Of a DNA stretch of 39,815 nt, positions 31,943 to 39,815 are shown in pieces (position 1 is the stretch's first letter; each line of letters opens with the position of its first letter). The position numbers were made by a program, and so were the translations under genes. This DNA is from an uncultured Dehalococcoidales bacterium (GTDB lineage: Bacteria; Chloroflexota; Dehalococcoidia; GIF9; AB-539-J10): contig CAZLCQ010000001.1 in the NCBI GenBank assembly GCA_964557995.1, forward strand, positions 1 through 39,815, given 5' to 3'. The notes beneath the pieces were generated by a model. That model worked only from the letters and a program-made list of their open reading frames with translations, searched no databases and was not told the DNA's origin.

Positions 31943-32857
31943 ATGGCAGGGACTTTTCATTACGGCGGCCAGGCAGTCATTGACGGGGTGATGATCCGGG
32001 GCAAGGAAGGCGTGGCCATATCTGTGCGTCAGCCCGATGGACAGTTGAACGTGGTGAAGCAGCCTCTGGCCAGCATCTACAAAGGGCGTCTCAGAGAGAT
32101 TCCTCTGATCAGAGGAATCATCGCTCTCATTGAAACCTTGGTCCTGGGCACACAGTCATTACTTCACTCTGCTCAGGTTGCCGCAACCGAGGAGGTGGGA
32201 GAGAAGATACCTGCAGCGGTCTTATGGGGTACGGTGGCGGCGAGTCTGGCTTTGGGTGTAGCCCTCTTCTTCATGGTTCCTCTCTTTGCCACGCGCTACC
32301 TTATAGACCCTTATATAGAATCTGGTTTGTTGAGCAATATCTTTGAGGGACTTATCCGTATGGGGATTTTCATCGCTTACCTCAAGTTAATGAGTCTAAT
32401 ACCTGATATTAGAAAGGTCTTCGCATACCATGGAGCTGAGCATAAAACGGTGAATGCCTATGAGGCAGGCGTTCCTCTGGATGTGGAGTCGGTTAAGATG
32501 TACTCTACTGCTCATGCTCGCTGCGGCACCGCCTTTCTATTCATTGTTCTGATCGTAGCTATTTTCGTCTTCGCCCTCGTTGGTCAGCCAAGTTTGTGGA
32601 TACGCATACTGTCTCGCATAGCCCTCATCCCGGTTATTGCGATTATTAGCTATGAAATCATGAAATTCGGAGCAAGCCACAGTACGAACCCCGTAGTCCG
32701 AATACTGTTGGCTCCGGGGCTGCTGTTGCAAGCTATGACGACCAGAGAACCCGACGACAGTCAGATAGAGACTGCCATAGCGGCATTAAATGAGGTCATG
32801 AGCATGGACCAGACTGCTATTACCATCGTCGATACGAACGAACCATTGACAGAATAG
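31943..32857 (+). CDS. DUF1385 family membrane protein
   Basis: 304 aa. N-terminus YGGQAVIDGVMIRG and the YHGAEHK motif, with TM helices. As I recall, DUF1385 commonly sits next to rpmE. Confidence 0.75.
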   Translation: MAGTFHYGGQAVIDGVMIRGKEGVAISVRQPDGQLNVVKQPLASIYKGRLREIPLIRGIIALIETLVLGTQSLLHSAQVAATEEVGEKIPAAVLWGTVAASLALGVALFFMVPLFATRYLIDPYIESGLLSNIFEGLIRMGIFIAYLKLMSLIPDIRKVFAYHGAEHKTVNAYEAGVPLDVESVKMYSTAHARCGTAFLFIVLIVAIFVFALVGQPSLWIRILSRIALIPVIAIISYEIMKFGASHSTNPVVRILLAPGLLLQAMTTREPDDSQIETAIAALNEVMSMDQTAITIVDTNEPLTE

Positions 32858-32874
32858 TACTGATCTGGTATTAT
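32846..32874 (+). promoter_or_regulatory. near-consensus sigma70 promoter overlapping the DUF1385 stop codon
   Basis: TTGACA (32846..32851)-N17-TATTAT (32869..32874) with TGG directly upstream of the -10 (TGGTATTAT). It would start transcription near 32881. Confidence 0.6.
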
Positions 32875-32880
32875 ATAAGG

Positions 32881-33009
32881 TAGCCACTGACCTTCCAGGC
32901 AGTGAGCGAGCGAATCGGATAGTTGTAAGTCCGCTTGGATCGGCGGTGACCGAGACGGACAACAGAAGTTGTTTGAATAACCCTCTCGGTTATAACGAGA
33001 GGGTTTTTT
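32881..33009 (+). ncRNA. candidate cis-regulatory leader RNA (attenuator, possibly a pan-motif instance) upstream of the pantothenate operon
   Basis: No ORF is present.
- P1 hairpin, 32883..32907: G83-C07 and C84-G06, bulged A32905, then C85-G04 through G89-C00, bulged A32890, then C91-G99 and C92-G98, with loop TTCCA.
- P2 hairpin, 32929..32960: GTCCG/CGGAC plus TCGG/CCGA.
- Alternative pairing: 32950..32958 (CCGAGACGG) can pair with 32981..32989 (CCCTCTCGG) at 8 of 9 positions.
- The element ends in a canonical terminator. Confidence 0.5.
32981..33009 (+). terminator. rho-independent terminator
   Basis: CCCTCTCG-gttataa-CGAGAGGG (8 bp, all Watson-Crick) followed by TTTTTT (33004..33009). 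Confidence 0.8.
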
Positions 33010-33982
33010 GTTTGTGGTCATGTTTGGTGCCATAACGGATATCTCGGGAATCAAAGTCGGGCATTATACCGACAAGAAGGCAGCGACCGGCTGCACGGTG
33101 ATACTTTGTGAGCAAGGGGCTGTAGCTGGCGTCGATGTCAGCGGATCATCCCCGGGCACCAGAGAAACAGACTTGCTCCGGCCAGGAAATGCAGTAGAGA
33201 GAGTTCAAGCTATCGTTCTTGGTGGAGGCAGTGCCTTTGGCCTGGACGCTGCTACCGGTGTTATGAGGTATTTGGAGGAGCGAGGATTCGGCTATGAGAC
33301 CAGTGCCGGCAAGGTGCCTATCGTGCCAGCCGCCATTATTTTCGACCTGAACATAGGGGATTCCAAAAGCAGGCCTGGAGCTAACGAGGGTTATCAAGCT
33401 TGCCTGGCTGCTGCCGTTGGCAAGGTAACCGAGGGATGTGTTGGCGCTGGCACCGGGGCAACAGTGGGCAAAATCCTCGGTCTGGACAGAGCAGTCAAAA
33501 GTGGCTTGGGGACTGCCAGTCAAAGAATAGCCAGAGACGTTGTGGTAGCTGCCCTGGTAGTAGTGAATGCCGTTGGAGATGTGATTGAACCTGGAACTGG
33601 GAAGATTCTGGCCGGACCTCGCGGGCCCGACGGGCGTGGATTCTTGTCTACATCTGAGTTATGGAAAGGTGATTTTATGGAAGCAGTTCCGCCCTCCAAT
33701 ACTGTAATCGGCGTAGTGGCTACCGATGCCAAGATAAGTAAGACGGAGGCAAACAAATTGGCTCGCGTGGCACAGGTTGGCATTGCTCGTACCATTGACC
33801 CATGTCACACCATGTATGACGGAGATGCTTTGTTTACGCTCTCTCTAGGAGAGAAGGAAGCTGATCTTAGTGCTCTGGGTGCAGCGGCTGCCGCGGTTGT
33901 TGCCGAGGCCATAGTGAGAGCAGTTCACGAGGCACAGACTCTAGCTGGCGTGCCGGCAGCCAAGGACGTAGGCAAATGTTAA
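33008..33982 (+). CDS. peptidase family S58 / P1 (DmpA/BapA-like aminopeptidase)
   Basis: ITDISGIKVGHYTD N-terminus and the NTVIGVVATDA self-processing/nucleophile block. The start is ambiguous (TTG 33008, GTG 33014 or ATG 33020). The only SD-like GAGGG lies inside the terminator's 3' arm. Confidence 0.75.
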   Translation: MFVVMFGAITDISGIKVGHYTDKKAATGCTVILCEQGAVAGVDVSGSSPGTRETDLLRPGNAVERVQAIVLGGGSAFGLDAATGVMRYLEERGFGYETSAGKVPIVPAAIIFDLNIGDSKSRPGANEGYQACLAAAVGKVTEGCVGAGTGATVGKILGLDRAVKSGLGTASQRIARDVVVAALVVVNAVGDVIEPGTGKILAGPRGPDGRGFLSTSELWKGDFMEAVPPSNTVIGVVATDAKISKTEANKLARVAQVGIARTIDPCHTMYDGDALFTLSLGEKEADLSALGAAAAAVVAEAIVRAVHEAQTLAGVPAAKDVGKC

Positions 33983-34842
33983 AGACAGGCTTTATTGGCG
34001 CGGGAACGACAGGCACTGCTCTGGCAGTAAGGCTTTCTCAGAAGGGATGGCCTGTAGTGGGCGTATCCAGCCGAACTCTGTCCTCAGCAAAGAAACTGGC
34101 CACGCGGGTGTCCGACTGCCAGATTTGCCACACAGATCAGGAATTGGCAGATGTTGCTGAAATGGTGTTCATCACCACCCCTGATGACGTTATAGCTCAG
34201 GTATGCAGCGAAGTTCACTGGCATAAGGGACAGAGTGTCCTGCATTGCAGCGGTGCTCATTCCGTAGATATTCTGGAACCAGCGAAGAAACTCGGGGCTG
34301 CTGTTGGCTCTTTTCATCCTCTGCAGACCTTTGCCGATGCTGCCCGGGCCATAGCAAACTTGCCTGGCTCTACCTTCGGTCTGGAAGCCGAAGAGCCACT
34401 GTTATCAACGCTTAAGGAGTTAACCTCTCTTCTGGATGGCAGCTGGGTGGAGCTCAAGCCCGGGGACAAGGTGCTGTATCACGCAGCGGCAGTCTTCGCC
34501 TGCAATTACCTGGTGACCCTGGTTAAGTTGGCGCTGGACTTATGGAAGGACTTCGGAGTGTCGTCACAAGGGGCGACCAGGGCCCTGCTGCCCTTGCTGA
34601 GAGGGACGCTGAACAACATCGACAGTATTGGCTTGCCTGACTGCCTGACGGGCCCTGTTGCCCGCGGGGACTTGGGCACCATTGAGAGGCACTTGAAGGC
34701 TCTTGATGCCGAGCACTCCTCTCTGCTTAGTACCTATGAAGAGTTAGGGCTTCAGACTATCCCCATTGCTGTGGCCAAAGGCAGGGTCAATGAACAGAGG
34801 GCAGAGGAAATGAGAGCCCTGCTTTCTTTGGGGAGAGAGTAG
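33976..34842 (+). CDS. Rossmann-fold plus DUF2520 oxidoreductase, candidate ketopantoate reductase (PanG-like)
   Basis: [13 protein letters not shown] dinucleotide fold and a C-terminal DUF2520-like half (PLQTF...LTGPVARGD). The start overlaps the S58 stop by 7 nt. The functional call is based on context. Confidence 0.55.
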
Positions 34843-34874
34843 ACAAGGGAACTTTGCGCCTAGGGAGGTACAAA

Positions 34875-35285
34875 ATGAGAACTATGCTGAAAAGTAAAAT
34901 CCACCGAGCCCGGGTTACTCAAGTCGACTTAGATTACGAAGGCAGTATCGCTATTGATCGGTCTCTCATGGAGGCTAGCGACATCTTGCCCTTCGAAAGG
35001 GTGGAAGTGCTAAACGTGAACAATGGAGCCAGGTTCAGCACTTACGCTATCGAAGGTGAAGCGAATTCTGGGATTATTGGTGTCAACGGGGCTGCAGCCA
35101 GGCTGGTGGCCAGGGGCGACATAGTCATCATCCTCTCGTATTGCCATGCTCCTGACGACGAGGCAGTCAATATGACCCCGAGGATAGTTCGTGTGGATAG
35201 TCGAAATAGAATCGTTGAGCCCTTACCTGCGGTTCCTCAATGGGAAGAAATCCAGCAGTCAGTAGCCACCAGGGGCGACTTCTGA
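34875..35285 (+). CDS. panD: aspartate 1-decarboxylase (pyruvoyl-dependent)
   Basis: [25 protein letters not shown], with the Gly-Ser self-cleavage site. I chose the inner ATG, which has GGGAGG upstream. Confidence 0.92.
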
Positions 35286-35343: not shown

Positions 35344-36180
35344 ATGAGGGTTACTATCGCTGATATAAGAGAAATGAAGCAAAAGAAAGAGAAGATACCC
35401 ATGCTTACTGCTTATGACTATGTGACGGCCAAGATGGTTGACGAAGCTGGTGTGCCCCTGATCTTGGTCGGGGATAGCTTGGGGATGGTGATGTTGGGCT
35501 ATGAGTCAACCATTCCCGTGACTATCGAGGAGATGATTCATCATACTAAAGCTGTAGTGAGAGGAGCTAAGAGGGCCTTAGTAGTAGGCGACATGCCATT
35601 TATGACCTATCATATCAACATCTCCGACGCTTTGCACAATGCCGCAAGGTTTATTCAGGAAGGGGGTGCGCAAGCGGTGAAACTGGAGGGGGGCGAGATC
35701 GTGGCGGACACGGTTAGACGCCTTGTTGGCTGCGGTATTCCAGTTATGGGTCATATTGGGCTTACACCTCAGTCTATACATCAACTGGGGGGGTTCAAGG
35801 TACGCGGCAAAGGGCTCGACGAGGCTAGGAAGCTGCTCAAAGATGCCCGCATACTGGAGGAAGCTGGAGCTTTTGCTATCGTTCTGGAATGCACTCCGGC
35901 GCCTCTCTCCAGCCTGATTACTCACAAGTTGACTATCCCCACGATTGGTATTGGGGCGGGACCTGATTGTGACGGCCAGGTCCAGGTGATTAGCGATCTT
36001 CTCGGCCTTTATACTGAATTTGTGCCCAAGCATGCCAAACAGTATGCCAGCTTAGCCGGAGAGATCAAGACTGCCGTTTCCAGTTATATAGCTGAAGTTG
36101 AATCTGTCGCTTTTCCCTCTGCACAGCACAGCTACACCATGGATGAGAGCCTGATCAAACAGCTAGAATCTGAAAGCTAA
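35344..36180 (+). CDS. panB: 3-methyl-2-oxobutanoate hydroxymethyltransferase
   Basis: MLTAYDY, LVGDSLGMV and VKLEGG motifs. AGGAGG lies upstream of the start. Confidence 0.95.
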   Translation: MRVTIADIREMKQKKEKIPMLTAYDYVTAKMVDEAGVPLILVGDSLGMVMLGYESTIPVTIEEMIHHTKAVVRGAKRALVVGDMPFMTYHINISDALHNAARFIQEGGAQAVKLEGGEIVADTVRRLVGCGIPVMGHIGLTPQSIHQLGGFKVRGKGLDEARKLLKDARILEEAGAFAIVLECTPAPLSSLITHKLTIPTIGIGAGPDCDGQVQVISDLLGLYTEFVPKHAKQYASLAGEIKTAVSSYIAEVESVAFPSAQHSYTMDESLIKQLESES

Positions 36181-36440: not shown

Positions 36441-37274
36441 ATGCAGGTAGTAAGGGCAATTGCCGAGACAAGGGCATTAAGGCAGAAGCTCAGCGGCACC
36501 GTGGGCTTCGTTCCCACTATGGGCTATCTCCATGAAGGCCATCTGGCTCTGGTCAGGTGGGCTAGGAGAGAGAATTCCGCCGTTATTGTCAGCATTTACG
36601 TTAACCCCGCTCAATTCGGCCCCAGGGAGGATTTTGGCGCTTACCCGCGAGACCTCGATCGGGACCTGGAGCTGTTGCAGAGAGAGGGAACGGATATCGT
36701 CTTTGTTCCGCTTGATGAGGAGGTGTACCCACCTGGTTTCAGTAGCTGGGTGGATGTGGGGAAGGTAACCGAGAAACTTGAGGGAGCATCTCGTCCGGGG
36801 CACTTCAGGGGCGTGGCAACTATAGTCGCCAAGCTATTCAACATTGTCCAGCCAACCAGGGCTTACTTCGGGCAGAAAGATGCCCAGCAGGTGGTGGTCG
36901 TCAAGAAAATGGTGGCTGACCTTAATATGGACCTGGAAGTCGTGATTGTGCCGACGGTGAGAGAGAGTGATGGTCTGGCCATGAGTAGTCGTAATACTTA
37001 CCTTAGCCCCAAGGAGCGCCAAGCCGCCACGATATTGTTCAGGGCTCTTGAGTTGGCGCAGCGACTGAGAAGAGGTGGGGAGAAGGACGCGGGAGAGATT
37101 CGCCGACGAATGGCCGCTCTTGTTCAGAAAGAACGTCTGGCCTGCGTTGATTATGTTAGCATCGCTGATGCCGAGACGCTGGAAGAATTGAATTTGCTCG
37201 ACCGCCCGGCGGTGGCTTCCCTGGCGGTCAGGATAGGCAAAACAAGGTTGATAGACAATATGCCGCTGGAATAA
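36441..37274 (+). CDS. panC: pantoate--beta-alanine ligase
   Basis: GFVPTMGYLHEGHLALV (HxGH) and RESDGLAMSSRN motifs. Confidence 0.95.
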   Translation: MQVVRAIAETRALRQKLSGTVGFVPTMGYLHEGHLALVRWARRENSAVIVSIYVNPAQFGPREDFGAYPRDLDRDLELLQREGTDIVFVPLDEEVYPPGFSSWVDVGKVTEKLEGASRPGHFRGVATIVAKLFNIVQPTRAYFGQKDAQQVVVVKKMVADLNMDLEVVIVPTVRESDGLAMSSRNTYLSPKERQAATILFRALELAQRLRRGGEKDAGEIRRRMAALVQKERLACVDYVSIADAETLEELNLLDRPAVASLAVRIGKTRLIDNMPLE

Positions 37275-37403: not shown

Positions 37404-37432
37404 TTGTCACAAGTGGCAAGAACTTCTATAAT
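37404..37432 (+). promoter_or_regulatory. promoter of the MarR gene with an overlapping inverted repeat (putative operator)
   Basis: TTGTCA (37404..37409)-N17-TATAAT (37427..37432). The imperfect inverted repeat CTTGTCA-caag-TGGCAAG (37403..37420) covers the -35. A second palindrome, TTATC-atga-GATAA, lies in the 5' UTR. Confidence 0.55.
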
Positions 37433-37484: not shown

Positions 37485-38027
37485 ATGACGTCAAACGCCA
37501 AAACAGACAAGTTGGTTCTGAAATTATGGTTCGTAACGCACCGAACCCGTGACGTGCTCAGGAACTGTGAGGACAAAGTATTCGGCAAGTATGGGCTTAC
37601 TGCAGAACAGTACGGAGTGCTCGCTGTCATGGAAGTACTGGGTGGTTCCGTGAGGGTAACTGACCTGGCCCGGGGGCTAGGACGCAGCGCGAACAGTGTC
37701 AGTATGATAGTCGATCGCATGGTCAAGGCTGGCCTGGTGCGAAGAGCAAGAGACCGGGGCGACCGCAGGACCGTACGTGTCAGTGTCACCAACAAAGGGG
37801 AGGTTGCCTTTAGACCGGCAACTGTGGCAGGGCTGGAGTTGATCGGGGAAGTCACATCACCGCTGTCAAACGAGGACAAGCGTACCTTTGTCAGGCTGCA
37901 CGAAATAGTAAGAAACAAGGCACTTCAATATTTGAACCCCGAAGGGGATATAGAAGAAATGAGAAGAAGCGACGTCACGAACCACCCCGATTTGCTCAAG
38001 CGACTGCGTCAATACCTTTCAACCTAG
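37485..38027 (+). CDS. MarR family transcriptional regulator
   Basis: 180 aa. Winged-HTH region LTAEQYGVLAVM...VTDLARGLGRSANSVSMIVDRMVKAGLVRRARDRGDRRTV. AAGGAGG lies upstream of the start. Confidence 0.85.
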   Translation: MTSNAKTDKLVLKLWFVTHRTRDVLRNCEDKVFGKYGLTAEQYGVLAVMEVLGGSVRVTDLARGLGRSANSVSMIVDRMVKAGLVRRARDRGDRRTVRVSVTNKGEVAFRPATVAGLELIGEVTSPLSNEDKRTFVRLHEIVRNKALQYLNPEGDIEEMRRSDVTNHPDLLKRLRQYLST

Positions 38028-39492: not shown

Positions 39493-39571
39493 TGCCACAC
39501 TCCTCAACGGAGATCATTTTCGCACGTTAACAAGTGAATAGGTTTTGTGTTCTGTCTGGCGTGAGTCAAGG

Positions 39572-39815
<244 letters not shown>

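Follow-up and report, generated by a model that had tools for sequence, protein, structure and literature searches.

A leader RNA upstream of a pantothenate operon

The 39,815-nucleotide (nt) stretch of DNA considered here, from contig CAZLCQ010000001.1 of an uncultured Dehalococcoidales bacterium, is referred to below as the window, and all coordinates are those of the window and its + strand. Downstream of a gene for a DUF1385 protein it carries an operon for the biosynthesis of pantothenate (vitamin B5): genes for an S58-family amidohydrolase and a DUF2520 oxidoreductase, followed by panD, panB and panC. Directly 5' of this operon lies a genuine regulatory leader RNA, composed of a promoter, two hairpins with bulged A residues and an intrinsic terminator. 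It was read within positions 32700-33200; its parts are collected, together with the operon genes, in Table 1.

The promoter combines a -35 TTGACA (32846-32851) with a -10 TATTAT (32869-32874) across a 17-nt spacer, has a TG at 32866-32867 (TGg-TATTAT), and is the best-scoring site within the surrounding 7 kb. A preceding sequence-only reading of this DNA had placed a near-consensus promoter across the end of the DUF1385 gene, and that is where it is: the stop codon TAG (32855-32857) falls inside the spacer. The other sequence features named in that reading likewise stand at the positions it gave. Transcription is predicted to start at ~32880-32882, at the base of hairpin 1.

The relatives used for comparison come from a genome scan that gave 80 loci; Dehalococcoidia metagenome bins contain over 100 homologues of the S58 protein, 83-98% identical to it. 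The 49-species set (L001-L046, L050, L052 and L059) consists of species-level Dehalococcoidia genomes, whose leaders make up the 49-sequence alignment A1. A TTGAC[AG]-17/18-TAnnnT promoter is kept in 48 of these 49 genomes at a fixed distance of 1-6 nt from where the leader alignment begins (only one of the 48 falls outside 3-6 nt), and in the Dehalococcoidia loci it accompanies the pan operon even where the upstream gene differs.

The interval between promoter and operon had been described as highly structured and devoid of open reading frames (ORFs). Structured it certainly is: the 135-nt leader folds to -52.6 kcal/mol (z=-4.2), and none of 200 dinucleotide shuffles is as stable. The other half of the description needs amending, in that a mechanical 29-amino-acid (aa) GTG ORF (32946-33035, +) runs, in another frame, into the 5' end of the S58 gene. 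This ORF is judged to be non-coding because the overlap is out of frame and because the length of the leader varies between relatives. Reading the leader as a leader peptide or as coding sequence was rejected, the ORFs being mechanical ones only; the indels of the linkers in the 49-species alignment are not multiples of 3, which does not fit a leader-peptide attenuator, and Rfam gives no T-box or leader-family match in the leader even at E<=10.

The S58 gene itself probably starts at GTG 33014, judging by the ATG found there in relatives and by the 320-322 aa length of the homologues; TTG 33008 is disfavoured. (A technical note: an AGGAG in linker 2 of relatives was considered as a ribosome-binding site and rejected, since a TTG follows it immediately and the spacing is too short; the window has AGAAG at this place.)

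A tandem copy of the pan motif

Hairpin 1 is built from the pairs G32883-C32907 and C32884-G32906, C32885-G32904 through G32889-C32900, and C32891-G32899 and C32892-G32898. That is to say, 2-3 outer pairs are followed by the bulged A32905, a 5-base-pair (bp) helix, the bulged A32890, 2-3 inner pairs and the loop UUCCA, exactly the hairpin with two bulged A residues that had been drawn from the sequence. Hairpin 2 has the same anatomy, with bulged A32939 and A32955 on opposite strands and a GCGG loop (32943-32946), so that each hairpin has a 5-bp helix between its two bulges. The partner-switching strand of the analysis that follows is the 3' strand of hairpin 2 (32949-32958), which includes CCGAGACGG at 32950-32958.

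Rfam family RF01749 (pan) covers 32882-32962 over model positions 1-92 of 92, with E=1.6e-4 for a 301-nt region and, when the whole window is compared with all 4227 families, E=0.021, and is the sole whole-window match at E<=0.5 besides ribosomal RNA (rRNA). A whole-window scan at gathering thresholds returns 23S rRNA only; pan surfaces only with E-value reporting. The pan motif had been suspected earlier on the strength of hairpin 1 alone. The suspicion was right and its confinement to hairpin 1 was not: the RF01749 alignment spans both hairpins, which are accordingly the two halves of a tandem motif, and hairpin 2 is a second pan hairpin, the more conserved of the two, and not a mere accessory helix. 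The leader is thus, as its sequence indicates, a tandem copy of the pan motif, a new instance of a known orphan class and not a new class. It shows bulged A residues in pairs, hairpins in tandem, placement in the 5' leader of a pan operon, homology to members of the Rfam seed, and compensatory changes.

Other Rfam families that overlap the leader (PyrR, ncr1575, LhrC, L10 leader and psbA 3'UTR) were rejected, with E values of 0.6-5 and scores far below gathering, driven by the terminator hairpin. Loop-loop kissing between hairpins 1 and 2 was likewise discarded, the loops being non-complementary and freely varying.

Conservation among Dehalococcoidia relatives

The layout of promoter, tandem hairpins and terminator is common to all 49 species genomes, and the S58-DUF2520-panD-panB-panC operon is the same in these loci wherever the contig is long enough. 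S58 homologues of other phyla (<62% identity) lie outside a syntenic pan operon, with a single pan gene nearby only in L049 and L078. Several loci retain promoter, hairpins and terminator with no detectable homologue of the DUF1385 or ribosomal-protein genes in the upstream sequence covered; the leader therefore belongs to the pan operon and not to the gene upstream of it.

The three helices (hairpin 1, hairpin 2 and terminator) are paired in 95% of alignment cells, a figure that drops to 32-45% if the 3' partners are shifted by 1-3 columns, and the number of pairs that change on both sides (13) is reached by none of 500 shuffles. Given no structure at all, RNAalifold recovers the same three helices, including the bulged A residues, which are retained across the alignment. 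The covariation in relatives that had been proposed as a test is found in hairpin 1, where 5 of 11 pairs covary (one is U-A in 26 sequences vs C-G in 19); the terminator, too, has two-sided changes, in 7 of its 10 pairs. Hairpin 2 is near-invariant, and varies in this way only in its outermost pair (U-A in 24, G-C in 8) and its innermost (G-U in 18, G-C in 17, A-U in 10). The antiterminator yields none, a point taken up below.

In one further locus (L171), a leader and terminator of the Dehalococcoidia type are followed by a short remnant and then by a DUF2520 homologue ~108 nt past hairpin 2; this lineage appears to have lost its S58 gene by deletion.

Terminator and antiterminator

The terminator has a stem of 10 bp, 6 of them G-C, and a 7-nt loop, and a T-run follows it in 46 of 49 species. 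As had been noted, a Shine-Dalgarno (SD)-like GAGGG (32999-33003) lies inside its stem; it is part of the 3' arm, 10 nt 5' of GTG 33014. The terminator tail had also been said to abut the first possible start codon of the operon; the terminator is there, and the real start is probably GTG 33014 and probably not TTG 33008. In more distant relatives a separate G-rich SD-like element follows the U-run and lies outside the hairpin.

The 9-mer at 32950-32958, which hairpin 2 sequesters, can pair with CCCUCUCGG (32981-32989) at 8 of its 9 positions, as the sequence-only reading had it, the mismatch being C32956 x C32983. This mismatch is itself constant among the 49 species: the corresponding columns 102 x 136 of alignment A1 are mismatched in 49 of 49 sequences (C x C or C x U), with conserved pairs on both sides. 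The proposed antiterminator could be extended in either of two ways: by pairing of G32957 and G32958 with C32982 and C32981 across the C x C mismatch, or by stacking of a small hairpin (32956-32975) on the helix. Its core pairs form in 96-100% of the 49 species, the complementary switching segments are kept in 46-48 of the 49, and in 46 the terminator 5' arm finds its best duplex partner in the 3' arm of hairpin 2. The two arms of the terminator core vary very differently: the 3' arm does so, by G-U wobble, in ~30 alignment cells, the 5' arm in ~4. So little variation of the 5' arm is what one expects of a strand that has two partners.

Folding predictions place the two alternatives close to balance. 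When the transcript is truncated short of the terminator 3' arm, a mean of 0.36 kcal/mol separates the most stable fold with hairpin 2 from the most stable one with the antiterminator; once the transcript is complete, the terminator fold leads by a mean of about 7.5 kcal/mol. For the window, hairpin 2 has a predicted probability of 1.0 for transcripts ending up to 32985, the antiterminator takes over with 0.96-0.97 at ends 32990-33000 (0.85 at the alignment-defined endpoint), and hairpin 2 with the terminator returns to ~1.0 from 33003 onward. At the decision point, 27 of 49 species have the antiterminator predicted at >0.5; in the full-length fold, 46 of 49 have the terminator at >0.9. Conserved complementarity, low variation of the terminator 5' arm and this predicted flip of the fold together support the arrangement of anti-antiterminator, antiterminator and terminator that had been proposed for the leader.

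(A hairpin that would sequester the 5' arm of hairpin 2, with CGGAU 32916-32920 pairing with GUCCG 32929-32933, is seen in the antiterminator-state fold of the window. Since L001, L002 and the more distant clades lack it, it is not treated as a conserved part of the switch.)

The wider pan family

As described in 2010, the pan motif is a stem that carries two conserved bulged A residues, occurs mostly as tandem pairs, and precedes panB, panC or panD in members of three phyla (PMC2864571). Its seed alignment holds three Dehalococcoides leaders, and terminators are annotated after several members, that of Bacillus subtilis included (PMC2864571, supplement). In the literature searched there is no pan ligand, protein partner or leader experiment since 2010, and specifically no experiment on the B. 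subtilis panB leader: a Paenibacillus transcriptome paper only lists the automated Rfam pan annotation, and a 2024 study of the B. subtilis coenzyme A (CoA) pathway does not mention the motif.

Metagenomes were scanned for the hairpin-2 pattern, with CGCY before TGGATC required as a filter. Of the 120 matches listed, 68 were dropped as chance or coding (a conserved phosphoenolpyruvate carboxylase motif, for example), and at least 52 genuine pan hairpins were obtained. Among the matches listed, 43 of these 52 stand directly upstream of pan genes (PanB 17, DUF2520 12, S58 6, PanC 6, PanD 2), and a predicted terminator follows 35. Their cognate terminators pair with the hairpin 3' strand at -11.0 kcal/mol, compared with -8.3 for 500 generic terminators from the same loci (Kolmogorov-Smirnov p=4e-6; again among the matches listed), and leaders of the window type stand at the 0.6-2.4 percentile for this complementarity.

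In 11 of the loci among the matches listed, a lone pan hairpin sits right against the ATG of a DUF2520 gene, and there is no terminator. (In L106, L134, L141, L153, L158, L175, L187, L193 and L194, a ~25-30-nt hairpin ends 3 nt before this ATG, ..GACCGAGACGGAaccATG.) This arrangement, to judge from its layout, appears to be a second, translational kind of platform, in which the hairpin would occlude the ribosome-binding site. Counting the 12 of 52 hairpins among the matches listed (L106, L134, L153, L158, L175, L187, L193 and L194 are examples) together with the Dehalococcoides seed members, DUF2520 recurs in pan-controlled operons of distant lineages.

Comparison with the seed members is instructive. 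The three Dehalococcoides leaders (NC_002936, NC_007356, NC_009455) resemble that of the window in having two tandem hairpins with two bulged A residues each, and the cores hardly differ: for hairpin 1, seed UGCCACCGACC..GGCGGUGAGC vs window AGCCACUGACC..GGCAGUGAGC, and for hairpin 2, seed CCGCUUGGAUCG..CGGCCGAGACGG vs window CCGCUUGGAUCG..UGACCGAGACGG. They too are 5' leaders of a pantothenate operon, with a downstream gene whose product is 60% identical to the DUF2520 protein of the window; the S58 amidohydrolase, which is the first gene of the window operon, is absent from theirs. The terminators differ as well: in the window a U-tailed hairpin whose 5' arm UCUCGG perfectly complements CCGAGA, in D. 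mccartyi a CUUCGG and no clean U-tract. The B. subtilis panBCD leader has tandem pan hairpins followed by an intrinsic terminator, and there also the 3' strand of hairpin 2, with its tail, pairs with the terminator 5' arm in the predicted fold of the truncated transcript (ACAGAGGGAU with AUCCUUCUCGU, -10.9 kcal/mol). It is the outer stem and a GAGGG tail that are used in B. subtilis, however, in place of the inner CCGAGA of the window, and the operon is panB-panC-panD only.

Two known kinds of control come close to this layout. In PyrR attenuation of the Bacillus pyr operons, a protein stabilises an anti-antiterminator; its binding favours the terminator, and the end product shuts off the operon. 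Nearest in shape is the NAD+-I (nadA) class of transcriptional OFF riboswitches, with tandem bulged stem-loops upstream of cofactor-biosynthesis genes and a terminator platform. The pan leader shares with the PyrR type a binding hairpin upstream of an antiterminator/terminator pair, but the sequence and anatomy of the hairpin are unrelated (the Rfam PyrR match reaches 22 bits against a gathering score of 54, and derives its score from the terminator). Unlike the NAD+-I class, pan is a putative sensor for which three obvious ligands have given negative results. A third comparison, with the ribonucleic antiterminator (RAT) of the BglG/LicT type, breaks down at the geometry. In RAT systems the hairpin bound by the protein overlaps the terminator 5' arm, and binding prevents termination; here the terminator stem does not begin until 32979, past the end of hairpin 2 at 32959, so that the two are complementary and not overlapping. 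Binding to hairpin 2 would consequently favour termination.

A proposed switch and its rivals

How might the leader work? Transcription would proceed from ~32881, and hairpins 1 and 2 would fold first. When the product of the pathway is plentiful, an effector would bind the two bulged-A hairpins and lock hairpin 2; the terminator (32979-33009) would fold unopposed, RNA polymerase would stop ~130 nt into the transcript, and the operon would be off. When no effector is bound, the newly made 5' arm of the terminator, UCUCGGU (32984-32990), would invade hairpin 2 and pair with ACCGAGA (32949-32955); this antiterminator would delay folding of the terminator and permit read-through into the operon, leaving the SD-like GAGGG unpaired. 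An effector-dependent transcriptional OFF switch with hairpin 2 as its anti-antiterminator is what we consider the probable function of the leader. A stabilised hairpin would mean repression in both kinds of pan platform, the terminator-linked and the ATG-abutting, which suits the feedback control of a biosynthetic operon. We infer that termination is conditional, that binding favours it, and what kind of effector would bind: tentatively, a trans-acting and probably dimeric protein that reports pantothenate or CoA status, a proposal that falls a little short of an even chance.

Several points weigh against this account and are best taken together. The match of the window to the pan model scores 34.6 bits and the gathering score, an operational cut-off and not a biological feature, is 36.2; the scan that had been recommended for the leader thus finds the motif, and finds it 1.6 bits short. 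The shortfall comes mainly from the inner pairs of hairpin 1, CC/GG where the consensus is UC/GA, and 11 of 20 orthologous leaders scanned pass the gathering score (36.4-54 bits). The antiterminator shows no covariation in 49 species, the test being uninformative where both strands are invariant, and its conservation could in part simply follow from that of hairpin 2 and of the SD-like 3' arm. As a single sequence, the complementarity of the window is not significant (p about 0.1), an equal or better duplex appearing somewhere in 9.6% of 2000 dinucleotide shuffles, and outside the Dehalococcoidia type the complementarity of terminator and hairpin is modest (median percentile 0.24). Hairpin 2 is predicted to be kept (>0.5) at the decision point in 17 of 49 species, and the folding evidence as a whole comes from equilibrium nearest-neighbour models at 37 C, which are not kinetics. 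Lastly, in-line probing of a single-hairpin Geobacter pan RNA with pantothenate, CoA or beta-alanine at 1 mM detected no change; its authors caution that the construct may have been inadequate (PMC2864571).

Must the effector be a protein? A true riboswitch, whose tandem hairpins would bind a small molecule of the pantothenate/CoA pathway with no protein involved, so stabilising hairpin 2 and causing termination, differs from the account above only in its effector. The platform has the classic transcriptional OFF layout, the motif is confined to pantothenate biosynthesis genes across phyla, and in the loci examined no dedicated regulator gene accompanies it: no RNA-binding regulator gene is consistently linked to the motif there, its neighbours being enzymes and a MarR-type DNA-binding protein. 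A 2022 review, moreover, states that no CoA riboswitch is known and calls the gap surprising. The negative probing speaks against a riboswitch, but with the force of just three ligands on one, possibly faulty, construct. The discoverers of the motif took its simple structure and paired arrangement to suggest the binding site of a dimeric protein (PMC2864571), and conservation lies largely in the paired nucleotides of a ~30-nt hairpin with free loops and variable linkers, a pattern that fits recognition by a protein at least as well. On balance, a directly bound metabolite seems to us rather unlikely. More doubtful still is a specific version, in which the tandem hairpins form an RNA-only sensor of a pathway metabolite outside the 2010 tests: pantoate, 4'-phosphopantothenate, 4'-phosphopantetheine or an acyl-CoA. 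Were that version true, the clean and finely balanced platform of this leader would lend itself directly to in vitro assays of the CoA-pathway riboswitch that has so long been missing. The discoverers having favoured a protein partner, and the ligand tests having been negative, the label "riboswitch" is not established for the leader.

The remaining alternatives concern the terminator. It might be mainly a device of translational control: the terminator-like hairpin would mask the SD-like GAGGG, the pan hairpins would obstruct the ribosome, and termination would be regulated very little. The position of GAGGG in the 3' arm, so close to the GTG start, would fit; the terminator-less hairpins at the DUF2520 ATG indicate that the motif can act via a ribosome-binding site, and the D. 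mccartyi hairpin that follows the motif has no clean U-tract. Yet the stem and U-run are canonical in the window and in 46 of 49 relatives, and the SD-like element of distant relatives stands outside the hairpin, so that sequestration of the SD is not the conserved feature; the two modes of control are, in any case, not mutually exclusive. Control that is mainly translational is therefore quite improbable. Or there may be no switch at all: the terminator might simply end the upstream ribosomal-protein/DUF1385 transcript, or constitutively damp the pan promoter, the hairpins being elements of stability or processing. Since the promoter overlaps the end of DUF1385, read-through transcripts from upstream would also end at this terminator; the full-length terminator fold is well ahead of its competitor, as noted above, and the antiterminator is without support from covariation. 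But the leader accompanies the pan operon and not DUF1385, the motif of its hairpins goes with pan genes in several phyla, and a terminator that separates a strong conserved promoter from the only operon it serves is sensible only if it is conditional. This last possibility strikes us as very remote.

What does this instance of the motif add? The motif has been an orphan since 2010, and CoA is the cofactor that the 2022 review singles out as lacking a known riboswitch. The 49 species genomes and at least 52 metagenome hairpins provide a resource of aligned leaders, and the OFF-switch model names its nucleotides and seems applicable to B. subtilis, where genetics is easy. Two members are added to the regulon, the DUF2520 oxidoreductase and the S58 amidohydrolase, and they sharpen guesses about the signal that is sensed. 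The Rfam threshold, finally, misses true pan motifs in this abundant uncultured lineage; its cultured relatives are already in the seed.

Operon genes and neighbours

The S58 protein has relatives of solved structure among the nylon-oligomer amidohydrolases and in ThnT (E about 1e-45). ThnT cleaves a pantetheinyl group to cysteamine, and the Asn-Thr self-cleavage site is apparently conserved in the alignment of the S58 protein to 9cxr. This kinship and the apparently conserved site make it plausible that the protein salvages pantothenate or beta-alanine from amides, as a pantetheine or beta-alanyl-amide hydrolase; if it is indeed a ThnT-like pantetheine amidohydrolase, a salvage step is added to the pan regulon. 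Its association with the pan operon is peculiar to this Dehalococcoidia clade. The DUF2520 protein, for which neither NCBIfam nor the PDB offers a functional name, is probably the ketopantoate reductase of these pathways.

Table 1. Parts of the pan leader and genes of the pantothenate operon (window coordinates)
Feature	Position	Strand	Remarks
Sigma-70-type promoter	32846..32874	+	11/12 consensus matches, TG extension
pan hairpin 1 (P1)	32882..32908	+	Rfam pan model positions 1-28
Linker 1	32909..32929	+	21 nt; length and sequence vary between species, indels 0-30 nt
pan hairpin 2 (P2)	32930..32959	+	Rfam pan model positions 60-88
Proposed antiterminator	32949..32990	+	ACCGAGA 32949-32955 with UCUCGGU 32984-32990
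Intrinsic terminator	32979..33013	+	Stem 32979-32988 with 32996-33005, loop 32989-32995, tail T6 GTTT
S58 (DmpA/NylC/ThnT-like) self-processing amidohydrolase	33014..33982	+	PF03576, E=4e-53; first operon gene
Rossmann/DUF2520 oxidoreductase	33976-34842	+	Pfam
panD	34854-35285	+	Pfam; probable start ATG 34875
panB	35344-36180	+	Pfam
panC	36441-37274	+	Pfam

Just 3' of panC is a MarR-family gene (37485-38027) with a near-consensus promoter of its own (TTGTCA-17-TATAAT, 37404-37432); many related genomes likewise have a MarR paralogue, or two, at this place. A 23S rRNA gene begins farther downstream (39564-39815), with no 16S rRNA or transfer RNA gene in the 39.5 kb upstream of it, and the rRNA genes appear to be unlinked; in one relative (L015) the 23S gene is likewise placed after the pan operon. 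Arrays of clustered regularly interspaced short palindromic repeats (CRISPR) lie a few kb from the pan operon in two others (L024, 3655-5012; L039, 6981-7236).

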